From assembly GCF_044324875.1 (NCBI RefSeq), contig NZ_CP172185.1: a stretch of 64,000 nucleotides of DNA, one strand, 5' to 3'. Of this stretch, positions 1 to 6,227 are shown one piece after another (within the stretch, counting starts at the first letter, position 1; every line of letters begins with the position of its first letter). The translations under genes were made by a program, and so were the position numbers. The notes beneath the pieces are model-generated. The model was not told the DNA's origin. It saw only the letters and a list, made by a program, of their open reading frames with translations, and did not search any database. This DNA is from Escherichia coli. GTDB lineage: Bacteria > Pseudomonadota > Gammaproteobacteria > Enterobacterales > Enterobacteriaceae.

Positions 1-117
1 CAAAATGAAGGCCGGTGACCAGATACCACAGTTGAACGATAAACAGAAACCTGCTGATAAAACACCGTGGCGACATGACAAAACGCCAGAGCAAAAACCG
101 TAAGCGCATTATTCGTC

Positions 118-420
118 TTGTGGAACTCTGGCCTGAGTCATTCAACCGGGAAAAAAACAAAACCACTTAAAGTGGGGATACCTGACGACCTGATACAGGA
201 TATCGCCATCCGAGAACTGGCGTTTGGCGCTGGTACATTACATGCAGCAGTGGCGTCTTATGTGCAGTCTCCGCGCTATTACCGTGCGTTAATAGCAGGT
301 GGCGCCCGTTACAACCTGAACGGTCAGCCGTGCGGGGAAGTGACACCACAGGAACAGAAAGAGGCAGAGACCCGTTTAATGATGCTGAATGACCGACGAA
401 AAGACAGAAAACCTCGTTGA
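118..420 (+). CDS. hypothetical protein (island-borne)
   Basis: 100-aa ORF from the six-frame track; begins with TTG, no ATG near the 5' end; no family recognised; opposite strand to neighbouring island genes. Confidence 0.25.
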   Translation: MWNSGLSHSTGKKTKPLKVGIPDDLIQDIAIRELAFGAGTLHAAVASYVQSPRYYRALIAGGARYNLNGQPCGEVTPQEQKEAETRLMMLNDRRKDRKPR

Positions 421-437
421 CTGCACAACAGCGCTGT

Positions 438-1190
438 TCACTGAGCTGTAATCAATGTACAGCGCTGTACCGGGCGATGGGTAATACCGGTCACAACCGG
501 TAACCCCAGAGACAATGCAACTGTTTTTAACGCAATATACTGGCCGGATGTATCACCCCGGGCAGCCTGAAAACACCTTTCCACCCGGCATTGTCCGTCA
601 GCACTTATCACCCGCCATGTCTGTTGCAATAAATCCACCCGTTGCGAACATTCTTCATCAACCGTGGCACTGACCCGTGGATGGCAAATGCTCGTCTGGC
701 TGAGCAGCAACAGGCATCGCATTGTTGCTCCTCCATGTTGTTCCCGCAACCAGCGTAATACCACCGGTGGTGCTGGACTGGCCGTGTGATTACGTTCAGT
801 AATACGCTCGTGCACCTGTCGGTAAAAGGAAGTACAGAATGCATGAATCTGTTGTCCGTTGATGTTTCCTTCTGCCGAATGGAGTGTGAAGTGGACGGCC
901 AGCAGACGCGGCCAGTGATCCACCGCCTGCTGAATAAAACGCCGGATTTCCACCGGCTCTGAAAGTACGGTTTCGGTTATTTGCACGATTTGATCCCCTT
1001 GAATGTTGCTGAACCGGTGTCGGTACGCAGGAAAGCACGCCGAGACCGGTACGATGCCTGTTACAGCGAAGAACGAGGAATGACAGACGGGGGCAGCAGG
1101 TCGCCAGCACCAGGGACAGGGCTGATTTCCACAATACCAACGCTGGTATTTTGCACATTGCCAGCGTACCGGCATTACAACACGTTTCAT
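438..1190 (-). CDS. putative YfjJ/YagK-like (inovirus Gp2-type) island protein
   Basis: ORF 438..1232 trimmed to the ATG at 1190, which overlaps the alpA stop in an ATGA arrangement (possible translational coupling). Weak resemblance to the two paralogs at 1492-3152 (HFTLH..., ...CLLLLS). Family assignment is tentative. Confidence 0.4.
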   Translation of the reverse strand: MKRVVMPVRWQCAKYQRWYCGNQPCPWCWRPAAPVCHSSFFAVTGIVPVSACFPAYRHRFSNIQGDQIVQITETVLSEPVEIRRFIQQAVDHWPRLLAVHFTLHSAEGNINGQQIHAFCTSFYRQVHERITERNHTASPAPPVVLRWLREQHGGATMRCLLLLSQTSICHPRVSATVDEECSQRVDLLQQTWRVISADGQCRVERCFQAARGDTSGQYIALKTVALSLGLPVVTGITHRPVQRCTLITAQ

Positions 1191-1423
1191 GCGGCGACTC
1201 CCCGTGATGCTTCGATGCGCTGCTGCATCCACTGCTCCACTTCGCTTCTGTACCAGCGGCTGCTGCGGCCCAGTTTGATGGGTTTAGGGAAATGGCCTTC
1301 ACTGATCAGCTTGTAAAACCATTTGTCGGTCATACCAGTGAAGCTGGTGATGTAGTTCATGTCGATCAGGGGATCGTCGGCACGCAGCAATACGCTGTCG
1401 TGACCTGTCATTGAGGTCAACAT
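1187..1423 (-). CDS. alpA: AlpA-family prophage transcriptional regulator
   Basis: 78-aa protein with the C-terminal region FTGMTDKWFYKLISEGHFPKPIKLGRSSRWYRSEVEQWM, typical of AlpA/CP4-57 regulatory proteins; start may be an internal Met. Confidence 0.7.
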   Translation of the reverse strand: MLTSMTGHDSVLLRADDPLIDMNYITSFTGMTDKWFYKLISEGHFPKPIKLGRSSRWYRSEVEQWMQQRIEASRGVAA

Positions 1424-1491
1424 GGTCAGAATGTCCTCTGTGAGATTTATGAATGTTGGGCAAATGCGGGTGAATCTGCTGAGCTGAGCTT

Positions 1492-2064
1492 TCAGAGCTG
1501 GCCTGCTACGGGATACCAGGGATTACCGGCGAGGTAACGGGCTTCCGGATCGCGCACACCACGACGATCGCGGGCGAAATCACTGAACGCCCATATCAGC
1601 TCTTTGAGTCTCTCTTCGCAGTCCGGTGAACGGGGATCCAGCAGCACATCCCGGGTAATCTGCTTCTGGTACGGTGCCGCTTCACCCGGTGACGCGAAGC
1701 CCAGTACGTTGCTCCAGGCATCCAGAATCAGCCGATCCAGTTCAGGGCCGTCGAAATATTCCTCCCTGACGCACAGCACCACGTGGTATTCCGGTTTTTC
1801 AGGATGACGAGTCAGGAGCCAGCAGAGATCACGTCCGGGGGTTGCATTCATCAGCGCACTGACGGTTTCGATAAAGGCCATACCGAACCAGGTTTTTCTG
1901 TCGCTGAAGATGTTGCCATGTTCCCCCGGCAGACGAAGCAGGATCCGCCGTATTCGGGAGCAGGGCTGCTCACGCAGCGCACGCTCAAGGACACCGATAA
2001 CTTTGCTCTGATAAGATGGCCAGAAGGGCGCCATGCTATAGTCGAAATAAGGGATAGCATTCAT
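1492..2064 (-). CDS. YfjJ/YagK-family paralog, probably N-terminally degenerate
   Basis: ORF 1492..2094 (TTG start); first ATG at 2064 gives MNAIPYF..., alignable to MNQPIH... of the paralog at 2421..3152. The conserved leader element lies about 160 bp further upstream (2231-2261) with no in-frame ATG in between. Confidence 0.4.
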   Translation of the reverse strand: MNAIPYFDYSMAPFWPSYQSKVIGVLERALREQPCSRIRRILLRLPGEHGNIFSDRKTWFGMAFIETVSALMNATPGRDLCWLLTRHPEKPEYHVVLCVREEYFDGPELDRLILDAWSNVLGFASPGEAAPYQKQITRDVLLDPRSPDCEERLKELIWAFSDFARDRRGVRDPEARYLAGNPWYPVAGQL

Positions 2065-2230
2065 AAGATATGTTCCGTTATACGCAGCCCACAACGCGTC
2101 CTGCCCGTGGATGCGCTGACGTGTTATGGCTTGCGTATGGGGTTGATGGAATAAGTGAAAAACCGCGGCAGAACGGGAAGATCAGGTAACCGACAAGGGA
2201 CAGAACACCGGATGCAGGTTCAGAATGAAT

Positions 2231-2261
2231 GATCTCCGTTGACTTCGGTTCACATCATTAA
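2231..2261. repeat. conserved leader element, copy A (GATCTCCGTTGACTTCGGTTCACATCATTAA)
   Basis: Direct repeat of the element at 3160-3195; the shared core GATCTCCGTTGA...TTCACATCATTAA is visible in the sequence. Confidence 0.6.
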
Positions 2262-2420
2262 GCAGGACAGTAAGGTTTTACCGACGGAGTGTTTCCAGGA
2301 GCGAAAGCAGAGAAAAATACCGTTGCATGACTTCAGGACGACTTTTTCAGAAAACGAGCTAAGGGCGTCAGCCAACGTCCTGTAGCATAAGCTCAGGCAC
2401 CGGATGTCGTTTTACAGGGC

Positions 2421-3152
2421 TCACCTGCCATCCAGTAGACGCCCCGGCCCACGACTGCAACCATAATTACGTTGCCCGGAACCGTTATGCAACTTCGTTT
2501 CATATTTCACGAGATAACTGGCTCTGTTCCGGGCTTTCTGCATCGCTTCCACATCACCACGCTTGACCCAGAGCACAGCGGATTCACCCGGCTTTTTGTC
2601 TGAAGCCTTCCTGGTATCAGAACATCCACCCGACAAAGGCGTATCATCGGAAGAAGGGCGAGCATCAGATGATGTCGGTTTACGGAAAGGCGTCCGCCTG
2701 GAAAAATGAACCAGTCCATTACCCTGCCAGGGCTCAAGATGCAGAGCACTACACCATGCCAGCTTGATCAGTGTCGCCAGCGAAGAAGGAACGGTGAAAT
2801 CCCCTGGCGAGCACCAGGTATCTTTGTTGAGCAGCAATATCACGTGATAATGTTTCCTGCCTTTTTCCTTGCCAAACTCCCGGCACCAGAAATAACGCAG
2901 AGTGGTTGCACGCACACGCTTGTTGGCACGTCGTTTTTTCCGCTGGTAAGCCTGAATTTTGGCTTTCAGGGATGCAAAAAAACGAGAAATCACCGCTGAA
3001 TCCGGATCGGGATCCATGATGGTGACAGGCATATACTCAGGGAAACGTAAATCCACCCGGATTAACGAGACGGCACGGTGCTGCGCCAGGGCACTGTCGA
3101 GAAGGCTGTCAAAACGGGATAACCAGTAAGCATTATGTATTGGTTGATTCAT
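2421..3152 (-). CDS. YfjJ/YagK-family (inovirus Gp2-like) protein
   Basis: 243-aa protein with LIRVDLRFP and HYHVILLLN motifs as remembered for the YagK/YfjJ family of CP4-type islands; GGAG ribosome-binding site about 10 nt upstream of the ATG on the minus strand. Confidence 0.55.
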   Translation of the reverse strand: MNQPIHNAYWLSRFDSLLDSALAQHRAVSLIRVDLRFPEYMPVTIMDPDPDSAVISRFFASLKAKIQAYQRKKRRANKRVRATTLRYFWCREFGKEKGRKHYHVILLLNKDTWCSPGDFTVPSSLATLIKLAWCSALHLEPWQGNGLVHFSRRTPFRKPTSSDARPSSDDTPLSGGCSDTRKASDKKPGESAVLWVKRGDVEAMQKARNRASYLVKYETKLHNGSGQRNYGCSRGPGRLLDGR

Positions 3153-3159
3153 GATGAGA

Positions 3160-3195
3160 GATCTCCGTTGATTTGGATTGACTTCACATCATTAA
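3160..3195. repeat. conserved leader element, copy B (GATCTCCGTTGATTTGGATTGACTTCACATCATTAA)
   Basis: Immediately 5' of the 2421..3152 start codon on the minus strand (contains its GGAG ribosome-binding site); on the plus strand it contains TTGATT-17 bp-ATTAAT, a promoter-like arrangement. Confidence 0.6.
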
Positions 3196-4282
3196 TCACC
3201 GCAGTAAAACTTTACGGCGTCCTGTCATTAAGCAACACCAGTGGCTCCTGATTAGAACAGAATGAGTTTCCCACGAACAAAAAGACAAACCTACACGCAG
3301 GGTAAAAACACGCAACAACAGCATGAATGGATTTGAAAACAATATGGATGACGAAAAATGTCAAAAGTGAAACGGATCAACAGAACGTGCAAACAAAACG
3401 TCAGAAACGCAATCAGAGCACTTTCTGGCGCTGTGAATCAACAACAACACCAAAACCTACAGCTTAACCACATTACTCAATCACGAATGCGAATGACACG
3501 TTTAAAACCTGTTTACAGATAACGCCGTAACACGATCATCCCCATCACCATCAGAATCGATTTTCTCATCCCGAAAATGTTACGTTTCACTACGCACCAT
3601 AAAAACGATTAACCATCGATAACGTAAATCTCATCTGAATCAAAAAACCAAAACCAATCATCACACTTTCGCAATGCAAGAAGAAAAACCACATCATGAC
3701 GAAAACAATGACCTTACATGAAAAAGCAAAACGTCAGGAATCGTTAATGCCTCAATCTGATTGTTATCAAAACATCCAGAAAGTCGTTTAACAGAATCGT
3801 CGTAAGCACATCGAAAAGAACGTCAGATCACCTCAGGAAAGTTCGGGTTGATTTAGCGTAAAGATACTTTTCTCAGCTTAACGTCGAAACACAAACCAAA
3901 AACCACAAACAACCAAAGCTCAGGAAAGGTTAAACGTCACATCAGTAAAATCGAATAGCAGATTGATTGCTTAAACAGAAAGGTTTTACAGCAGCTTTAA
4001 ACTGATTTTAGCTAACGTAAAGATTTACTAAACTGGATGAGTTTCAGACAAAGCAATGTGTACAGCAATGCTTAATGAAAACACTTATAGGGCTGTTTAT
4101 GAAAACACGTGTATGTCTGGTAAAACACTTAGTAGAAAATACGTGTATAACACTTACTGAAATGCTTAGTAAAAATACTTAGTAAAATATGTAGACTGGC
4201 CCCCTGAATCTCCAGACAACCAGTATCACTTAAATAAGTGATAGTCTTAATACTAGTTTTTAGACTAGTCATTGGAGAACAG

Positions 4283-4648
4283 ATGATTGATGTCTTAGGG
4301 CCGGAGAAACGCAGACGGCGTACCACACAGGAAAAGATCGCAATTGTTCAGCAGAGCTTTGAACCGGGGATGACGGTCTCCCTCGTTGCCCGGCAACATG
4401 GTGTAGCAGCCAGCCAGTTATTTCTCTGGCGTAAGCAATACCAGGAAGGAAGTCTTACTGCTGTCGCCGCCGGAGAACAGGTTGTTCCTGCCTCTGAACT
4501 TGCTGCCGCCATGAAGCAGATTAAAGAACTCCAGCGCCTGCTCGGCAAGAAAACGATGGAAAATGAACTCCTCAAAGAAGCCGTTGAATATGGACGGGCA
4601 AAAAAGTGGATAGCGCACGCGCCCTTATTGCCCGGGGATGGGGAGTAA
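4283..4648 (+). CDS. insC: IS2 transposase OrfA (InsC)
   Basis: [56 protein letters not shown]... matches remembered IS2 InsC (121 aa). Confidence 0.95.
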
Positions 4649-5511
4649 GCTTAGTCAGCCGTTGTCTCCGGGTGTCGCGTGCGCAGTTGCACGTCATTCT
4701 CAGACGAACCGATGACTGGATGGATGGCCGCCGCAGTCGTCACACTGATGATACGGATGTGCTTCTCCGTATACACCATGTTATCGGAGAGCTGCCAACG
4801 TATGGTTATCGTCGGGTATGGGCGCTGCTTCGCAGACAGGCAGAACTTGATGGTATGCCTGCGATCAATGCCAAACGTGTTTACCGGATCATGCGCCAGA
4901 ATGCGCTGTTGCTTGAGCGAAAACCTGCTGTACCGCCATCGAAACGGGCACATACAGGCAGAGTGGCTGTGAAAGAAAGTAATCAGCGATGGTGCTCTGA
5001 CGGGTTCGAGTTCCGCTGTGATAACGGAGAAAAACTGCGAGTCACGTTCGCGCTGGACTGCTGTGACCGTGAGGCACTGCACTGGGCGGTCACTACGGGC
5101 GGCTTCAACAGTGAAACAGTACAGGACGTCATGCTGGGAGCGGTGGAACGCCGCTTCGGCAACGAGCTTCCGGCGTCTCCAGTAGAGTGGCTGACGGATA
5201 ATGGTTCATGCTACCGGGCTAATGAAACACGGCAGTTTGCCCGGATGTTGGGGCTTGAACCGAAGAGCACGGCGGTGCGGAGTCCGGAGAGTAACGGCAT
5301 AGCAGAGAGCTTCGTGAAAACGATAAAGCGTGACTACATCAGTGTCATGCCCAAACCAGACGGGTTAACGGCAGCAAAGAACCTTGCAGAGGCGTTCGAG
5401 CATTATAACGAATGGCATCCGCATAGTGCACTGGGTTATCGCTCGCCACGGGAATATCTACGGCAGCAAGCCAGTAATGGGTTAAGTGATAACAGGTGTC
5501 TGGAAATATAG
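4606..5511 (+). CDS. insD: IS2 transposase OrfB (InsD)
   Basis: 301-aa protein [34 protein letters not shown]... matches remembered IS2 InsD; overlaps insC as in IS2. Confidence 0.95.
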
Positions 5512-6227
5512 GGGCAAATCCAATATGTGTAGAATTATCTATTTAAAAAGATATGTATATAACACTTAATAAAAACATGTGTATATAGTATCATACCGAC
5601 ATTCTCAACATCTTCAGACTTCCATACATACTGGGTGTTGATTTCTCACTTTTACAGCCAGCATGGAGTTTTCTGTCCTAAAAACAGAGCAGATTTACTC
5701 TGGAATTATTTTTCTGCCCCCGTATTTCAGGCCCCAGAAAAGACAATCCGAAGCAAACCGTTTGTCAGCCTCCATATCATCTTTTACCCCCGGAAAGTGA
5801 TCGCGTTTTACAACCAGAATGACAGCCATACTGATTATGTCGTCTCCCGGCCCCCTTCACATATAACATGCATGTCTGTCATTGCTTACTGCTCCACATG
5901 ACCGGATTTCACATACAGGATGCACATTCAGTGTTTTTATCGCCACTATAACAGACAGATTACTGTCGTCTTTACTCTTCAGATTGTTAATCTGACCACA
6001 AGAACAGCCGAACGGCAAAACGCCCTCCACAAGGGGCACATGAACCATAGTTGATAGCATGTTTTTCCTAATCAAGGAATAGTTCAGGAATATTTTATTG
6101 CATTAATAACTGGCGAATAATCGTTCTGTGAACACAAAATGCTTTTATTTGTAAATTTTATTGCATTGCACTCGTTTTATTGATATGGGGTTTAATAACA
6201 GATAACCCGGAAAGAAGGAGAAAACAG

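Follow-up and report, generated by a model that had tools for sequence, protein, structure and literature searches.

The YagK/YfjJ protein family is widespread in enterobacterial and Pseudomonas islands, where its genes are usually paired with alpA (10.1101/2024.08.29.610337), and alpA also accompanies them in about half of the non-E. coli loci examined here. The Escherichia coli K-12 genes yfjJ and yagK belong to the same family, PF11726, as the gene at the centre of this study, but the leader element described below is absent from their upstream regions and their gene order, alpA-yfjI-yfjJ, is different; because of this, the label 'yfjJ-like' is valid at the family level only. Since the element is absent there, K-12 is unsuitable as a model for this leader and its transcript maps cannot help. 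The AlpA protein of Pseudomonas aeruginosa contacts DNA through residues 128-142 and has the binding element GGGACG (PMC9371919), a lead that we dropped because this is a different, larger protein that offers no usable motif. Our literature search turned up no description of this leader or of what YagK/YfjJ proteins do.

We detected two copies of a conserved element in the window, the whole 64-kb stretch of E. coli DNA that was analysed, and both copies and all relevant genes lie on the minus strand, to which the coordinates below refer unless stated otherwise. A pattern search of the whole window for GATCTCCGTTGA-N-TTCACATCATTAA returned two exact matches, at 2231-2261 and 3160-3195, where none was expected, and 100 shuffles of the sequence returned none. 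The similarity between the copies is longer than this motif pair, at about 63-85 nt depending on the method: the repeat finder and pairwise alignment gave ungapped similarity of ~63-68 nt in two blocks offset by one 5-nt indel, and a profile search of the 64-kb window recovered copy 1 at 2305-2214 (E 1e-25), copy 2 at 3238-3145 (E 5e-24) and no third copy. Aligned in gene direction, the copies share GTAAA..TTAC..TG.TTAATGATGTGAA-(6 or 11 nt)-TCAACGGAGATC..TCAT..TGAA over ~70 nt, the 5-nt indel being the only one, and the two leaders are ~78% identical. The sequence-only reading of this DNA had placed the same element at both genes, and it was right to do so, with the similarity longer than it had stated.

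Copy 2 (3148..3232) is the leader and translation start region of a gene for a 243-aa Gp2-like protein. It carries the palindrome GTAAAGTTTTAC (3215-3204), the box TTAATGATGTGAA (3195-3183), an 11-nt linker that contains the 5-nt insertion relative to copy 1, the box TCAACGGAGATC (3171-3160) and the start codon ATG (3152-3150). The GGAG inside the second box (3166-3163) stands 10 nt before this ATG, in agreement with the earlier proposal that the element supplies the ribosome-binding site of the intact paralogue. Copy 1 (2219..2303, with its conserved block at 2303-2226) is a start-less copy of the same leader, in which a hairpin-capable CGGTAAAACCTTACTG (approximately 2283-2269) is followed by TTAATGATGTGAA (2261-2249), a 6-nt linker, TCAACGGAGATC (2242-2231) and, opposite the ATG of copy 2 in the pairwise alignment, CTG (2223-2221). 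A short palindrome, CGGTAAA..TTTACCG, is adjacent to both copies. We also observed a two-codon open reading frame, ATG-ATG-TGA, that is invariant in both copies (3183-3195 and 2249-2261); as to its role, it is a recurrent feature only and may be ribosome-related.

The gene behind copy 2 (2421..3152) encodes a YagK/YfjJ protein named "inovirus Gp2 family protein" in RefSeq, which has a ~45-aa insertion compared with relatives of 189-207 aa. It matches Pfam PF11726 (YagK/YfjJ; 123.7 bits, cut-off 25.8, E 9.8e-36) as well as PF23343. His94, His96, Tyr168 and Lys171 (P0157 numbering) are invariant in 24 Gp2-like sequences and form the HxH and YxxK motifs, which the 243-aa protein carries as HYHVILLL and YLVK. 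The protein also has the Rep-like fold of the HUH endonuclease superfamily, with Foldseek matches that are weak (TM 0.25-0.35); site-specific nicking of single-stranded DNA through a covalent tyrosine link would be its putative activity. Copy 2 lies beside an 'inovirus Gp2 family protein' gene in 1873 of 5426 complete E. coli genomes, and the interval holding copy 1 is present in 1908 of them.

Directly upstream of the Gp2-like gene, ~1 kb of DNA (3196-4192) contains no open reading frame longer than 55 aa and has a GC content of 33-41%, an AT skew of +0.33 and a GC skew down to -0.39. This region holds three of the seven exact AAACGTCA words of the window along with looser copies, and AT-rich short repeats at 4061-4190; the gene-free gap measures ~1.74 kb in an uninterrupted relative (L001). 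Such a stretch beside an HUH-fold gene could be iteron-like, act as an origin or be regulatory DNA under silencing. An IS3-family element at ~4193-5530, IS2-like by eye and with open reading frames at 4238-4648 and 4606-5511, interrupts this non-coding region; in the closest genome, that of strain GF43, the 100% match to the window ends at position 4192 and the insertion is absent. Further right, relatives carry genes for a GTPase, a DUF932 protein, an antirestriction protein, RadC, a DUF987 protein and a toxin-antitoxin pair. At the other end of the module, a plus-strand ProQ/FinO-family gene (118-420, extending left of the window start) is convergent with the Gp2/alpA module and is annotated as frameshifted in relatives; by eye, the gene set from ProQ/FinO to the toxin-antitoxin pair resembles plasmid leading regions.

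Copy 1 lies ~155-190 nt upstream of a 190-aa gene (1492..2064), and in 49 of 51 unique sequences that gene was found 184-222 nt after it. In the window the distance from copy 1 to ATG 2064 is 166 nt, and the frame between them contains no ATG and one TGA (2184-2182), so the sequence-only reading, which gave about 160 bp and no in-frame ATG, described this arrangement correctly. Of the 138 instances that our pattern scan of metagenome contigs yielded, 69 were copy 2-like and 68 copy 1-like, and the remaining one was a chance match. In all 68 sampled copy 1 instances the codon aligned with the start of copy 2 was CTG, CTT or TTA, never ATG, and no canonical start lay within reach of the GGAG. 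Conservation of copy 1 is therefore not explained by translation control of an adjacent open reading frame. The scan pattern fixes 22 positions, and as evidence for conservation we used only the unforced positions and the second copies retrieved incidentally: the unforced positions of copy 1 were also nearly invariant, and the incidental second hits included no copy 1 variant without exact boxes in loci retrieved via copy 2, compared with ten such variants of copy 2.

The spacer between copy 1 and the 190-aa gene (2065..2225) is fast-evolving non-coding DNA of a type that we call A (~155 nt), which shares only patchy collinear similarity with the type B spacers (~180 nt) of other islands. We found no conserved open reading frame in it and no signal of a Gp2-type gene remnant, nor did it resemble the start of the 190-aa coding sequence (p 0.03-0.74), and with no signal in either comparison we rejected the spacer as a decayed Gp2-type gene or a duplicated 5' end. 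Antisense open reading frames on the plus strand (2239-2385 and its counterpart at copy 2) were also set aside, as their frames differ between the copies and are not conserved. For annotation, the interval 2065-2420 holds a constrained element.

The 190-aa gene has its own start. The spacer provides a Shine-Dalgarno sequence 8 nt before ATG 2064, GGAA in the window (2076-2073) and GGAG in relatives, and every family member that we read opens with MNAIPYFD at the equivalent ATG. The family is essentially restricted to E. coli, with a typical length of 190-191 aa. N-terminally longer homologues were looked for and do not exist; the longer cluster members are C-terminal extensions by frameshift. 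The protein has no hit to Pfam PF11726, even at E 10, and none in NCBIfam, and it matches the 243-aa protein at E 0.023 by BLASTP, with ~20% identity between the two proteins and no nucleotide similarity between their genes. In a profile comparison by hhalign, its residues 12-126 matched positions 4-142 of the Gp2 family (probability 91.8%, E 7.5e-7), residue 12 standing opposite residue 4, so the N-terminus begins 8 residues earlier than that of the family, and tblastn matched it to a Gp2-like gene of Budvicia (E 4e-4). Because of the hhalign alignment and the Budvicia match, the 190-aa gene is a true but very distant paralogue with a complete N-terminus. The sequence-only reading had called both genes yfjJ-like paralogues, which stands as remote homology in the profile comparison and not as a Pfam assignment of the 190-aa protein. 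Its suggestion that the second gene had lost its start region did not hold, and an intact start, here ATG 2064, was one part of what the same reading had said would speak against it.

The 190-aa paralogue lacks the catalytic residues expected of the HUH superfamily. It has EYH at the position of the family HYH, and the tyrosine of ARYLAG is a cysteine in its large cluster P0002 (2598 members); because of these two substitutions, the protein is probably non-catalytic. The gene stands at the alpA-adjacent position that Gp2-like genes occupy elsewhere, and for annotation its "hypothetical protein" is a degenerate Rep-like paralogue with a correct start. The neighbouring alpA-family gene (1187..1423; Pfam PF05930) encodes a helix-turn-helix protein. 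Beyond it, a 182-aa gene (438..986), sometimes labelled YagK/YfjJ domain-containing by PGAP/RefSeq, is a possible third family member; its product has no Pfam match even at E 10, and no element lies upstream of it. A 264-aa frame with a GTG start (438-1232) is an over-extension of this gene, which RefSeq places at 438-986 (182 aa).

Depth of conservation differed sharply along the module. When the window was compared with a locus that has the same upstream gene type (L005), identity was 77% upstream of copy 2, 91% in copy 2, 94% in the Gp2 coding sequence, 81% from its stop codon to copy 1, 92% in copy 1, 47% in the spacer and 92.5% in the 190-aa coding sequence. Both copies are kept at a coding-like level (~92%, with coding sequence at 90-94%) amid fast-changing non-coding DNA (47-81%). 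A 78-nt block (2303-2226) is common to islands that differ on either side of it: the gene upstream is either of the 243-aa type or a 188-aa gene of YagK type that looks unrelated and has a leader of another kind, the two combine with spacer types A and B, and the breakpoints fall at the block edges. Among ~140 instances none was a hybrid of copy 1 and copy 2, and the two copies share E. coli-specific features that are absent in other genera. As the leaders are ~78% identical and share these features while the proteins are ~20% identical, the history of the leader is not simply that of the genes downstream of it. The leader of the alternative 188-aa gene (L004, L006 and L007; for example, L006:2255-2414) begins TTTACAGC and contains AAAACGTCATTAAC, within which lies AAACGTCA, the same word that recurs at 3396-3939 of the window.

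Leaders of the same kind were detected outside E. coli. A Gp2 profile run against one genome per species recovered 67 loci, and in about half of the non-E. coli loci alpA follows the Gp2-like gene within 100-200 nt, the 190-aa gene being absent from that gap. Almost gap-free alignment with both copies was obtained for the leaders of Gp2-like genes from Tatumella, Kosakonia, Rosenbergiella, Hafnia, Siccibacter, Entomohabitans, Brenneria, one Providencia and several metagenomic contigs. The common order of columns is a T-run leading to TAC, a variable segment of 9-10 nt, a box centred on (A/G)TGAA, ~8 nt, (C/T)GGAG, 8-10 nt and ATGAA. With a profile built from E. coli alone, four of the best five foreign hits lay directly upstream of Gp2-like genes. 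The element is a homologue of the leaders found in at least eight other genera before Gp2-like genes that are followed by alpA. Copy 1 is closer to these leaders than copy 2 is, because it is without the 5-nt insertion. The viral contigs that were searched gave only one exact match. At the position of ATG-ATG-TGA, relatives in other genera have ATG-TGA, ATG-AAT-TAA, ATG-AAA-TAA or ATG-ACA-TAA, or an in-frame upstream start; in many, an upstream ATG or GTG in the box runs to a stop after 0-2 codons or opens into the main ATG.

The other-genus leaders also suggest a structure. The variable stretch that follows TAC in them can base-pair with the GGAG region as an 8-pair helix with 77% of cells paired, against 25-40% in a slid-partner control, and one pair covaries, being GC in five sequences and AU in four. 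RNAalifold finds a 4-pair core of this helix on its own, at only -1.9 kcal/mol, and the mismatches (G-T 7 against A-C 5) do not distinguish the level or the strand of the pairing. When the E. coli copies were added, pairing fell to 64% and RNAalifold returned no consensus structure; the 5' arm is the most variable segment of the E. coli copies and is unpaired in them. In the minimum-energy RNA fold of copy 2, GGAG and AUG are both paired within a long imperfect hairpin (z = -2.3), of which natural copy 2 variants break predicted pairs without compensation, and in copy 1 CUCCGU can pair with ACGGAG around a small hairpin whose energy does not beat that of shuffled sequences (z = +0.4). Folded as single-stranded DNA, either strand of both copies was unremarkable (z from -0.9 to +0.5). 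Rfam 15 had no match at the element, the only hit at E <= 1 in window 1-4300 being an unrelated PhotoRC-I match at 2662-2729, which scored 19.9 bits where the gathering score is 45. We found no sigma-70-like promoter or intrinsic terminator in or beside either copy, and the totals were below shuffle expectation. By-eye -35/-10 hexamers (TTTACA, TATTTT and GAGATT) had no consistent spacing and are not claimed, and a likeness to CRP or IHF half-sites (TGTGA, WATCAA), seen by eye only, was asymmetric and not conserved across genera.

We tentatively favour, at somewhat less than an even chance, the reading in which the element is a conserved cis-acting leader that controls expression in the alpA-linked Gp2-like family, with copy 1 as a selected, start-less duplicate. 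Copy 2 would be the working leader that gives the 243-aa gene its ribosome-binding site and ATG, and copy 1 a second leader without a start codon that heads the region before the 190-aa paralogue and alpA and would be kept by selection as a cis-acting site. A single sequence-reading factor may then act on the 243-aa gene through copy 2 and on the 190-aa/alpA unit through copy 1; candidates are a protein of the island, for example AlpA or a Gp2-like one, or the ribosome at ATG-ATG-TGA and GGAG. Outside E. coli, the leader carries an inverted repeat that would be able to occlude the ribosome-binding site. The sequence-only reading had suggested a shared control site, and the copies are indeed a shared and conserved site; that they control expression, and whether at the level of transcription, translation or RNA, is what we infer from sequence. 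A conserved element with defined boxes, next to an HUH-fold gene, provides concrete reagents for testing what the YagK/YfjJ proteins bind and how the module is controlled.

The strongest alternative is that the element is the DNA recognition or nick site of the HUH Rep-like protein, that is, an origin, an oriT-like site or a termination site whose two copies flank the nuclease gene, so that the Gp2-like/alpA module would serve the island as its core for replication or mobilisation. Origins of HUH proteins typically lie just upstream of rep and have a conserved loop with covarying arms, a pattern that is present in the non-E. coli leaders; the Gp2-like family has the invariant HxH and YxxK, copy 1 is conserved despite having no start codon, and the 7 to 5 split of helix mismatches contains nothing that demands reading as RNA. 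However, every lineage places GGAG 8-10 nt ahead of its ATG and the spacing from box to ATG is near-constant, which is a requirement of a start region and not of an origin. Neither window copy forms a significant hairpin as single-stranded DNA, a 5-nt indel lies between the two boxes, the ~140 instances contain no hybrids that would record cleavage and joining, and the Foldseek match is weak. We consider this explanation unlikely. Its more ambitious form is more doubtful still: the leader would be the cognate nick or recognition site of an uncharacterised YagK/YfjJ HUH family, the Gp2-like/alpA pair with this site would form the replication or mobilisation core of a very common class of enterobacterial islands, present in ~35% of complete E. 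coli genomes, and the two direct copies flanking the nuclease gene would serve as initiation and termination sites.

It is improbable that the element has no function of its own and that its copies are kept alike and conserved as patches of homology at which island modules are exchanged, whether through gene conversion or as linker sequences. The mosaic flanks, in which 243-aa and 188-aa genes are combined with spacers A and B at the edges of the 78-nt block, are what such exchange might leave behind, as are the E. coli-only features shared by copies 1 and 2 in front of very distant genes. Against this, the leader is conserved in genera that have only one copy, the missing copy 1/copy 2 hybrids offer no trace of exchange between copies, and the 5-nt indel and the distinct upstream halves are fixed for each copy type, which argues against ongoing conversion.

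We also regard as improbable, and a shade less credible, the explanation that builds on the sequence-only reading: a gene with its leader was duplicated in tandem and the downstream copy is decaying, with copy 1 then a relic that has no function and in which the ATG has changed to CTG. The CTG does align with the ATG and is in frame with the 190-aa gene, with one TGA between, and in E. coli 042 (L006) the frame is open into the gene; the 190-aa protein is without the first HUH histidine and has cysteine for tyrosine in a large cluster; and the sequence around the start of that gene, AACGGA(G/A)-N8-ATGAAT, is similar to the element's 3' end. By our estimate, though, a single frame match with at most one stop in 52 codons arises by chance in ~10% of cases, the 190-aa protein has a complete N-terminus that begins 8 residues ahead of that of the family, and ATG 2064 is universal in its own family. 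Copy 1 is conserved to the same degree as coding sequence, the adjoining spacer being at 47%, and neither a Gp2 remnant nor similarity to the gene 5' end was found in that spacer. Recent tandem duplication and decay is therefore unlikely, because the leaders are ~78% identical in front of genes without nucleotide similarity, because none of 68 copy 1 instances keeps the ATG and because the spacer holds no remnant.

A hidden small open reading frame or leader peptide that runs from copy 1 through the spacer, translationally coupled to the 190-aa gene, is very improbable and was rejected: one frame is open through spacer types A and B, type B ends in an ATGA overlap with the 190-aa start, the first 19 codons of the two types share 10 residues and ATG-ATG-TGA is invariant in both copies, but that frame has no ATG, GTG or TTG start, a common variant (L007/L008) breaks it with a 1-nt deletion, differences between A and B are distributed 9:6:9 by codon position with no third-position excess, and a C/T polymorphism (CCGAAG/CTGAAG, 28 against 40 instances) toggles a stop in the GTG frame.

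Compared with known systems, the element shares features with three of them. Leaders that hide the ribosome-binding site, such as translational operators and the ROSE and fourU RNA thermometers, likewise stand directly before the start codon and include GGAG; in relatives, a CUCC-containing upstream arm pairs with GGAG with some covariation, and the fold of copy 2 pairs GGAG and AUG. Unlike them, our element matches no Rfam family, the pairing is lost in the E. coli copies and copy 1 has no open reading frame to control, and RNA thermometers do not have a conserved loop box. The double-strand origins and nick sites of HUH proteins, including the dso of pMV158, the stem-loops of geminiviruses and circoviruses and the oriT of relaxases, resemble it in lying directly upstream of an HUH-fold gene, in the box with covarying arms seen in relatives and in the palindrome adjacent to the copies. 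They differ in that the GGAG/ATG spacing is fixed here, the window copies have no significant hairpin and the element has no sequence match to a characterised nick site. The autoregulated operators of mobile elements, such as those read by Vis of phage P4 and AlpA/Xis-type helix-turn-helix proteins, are alike in that an alpA-family gene lies in the same direction one to two genes downstream and in that two copies of one site stand before two units. The element is a previously undescribed member of an ordinary class, the conserved leaders and cis-sites of mobile-element genes.
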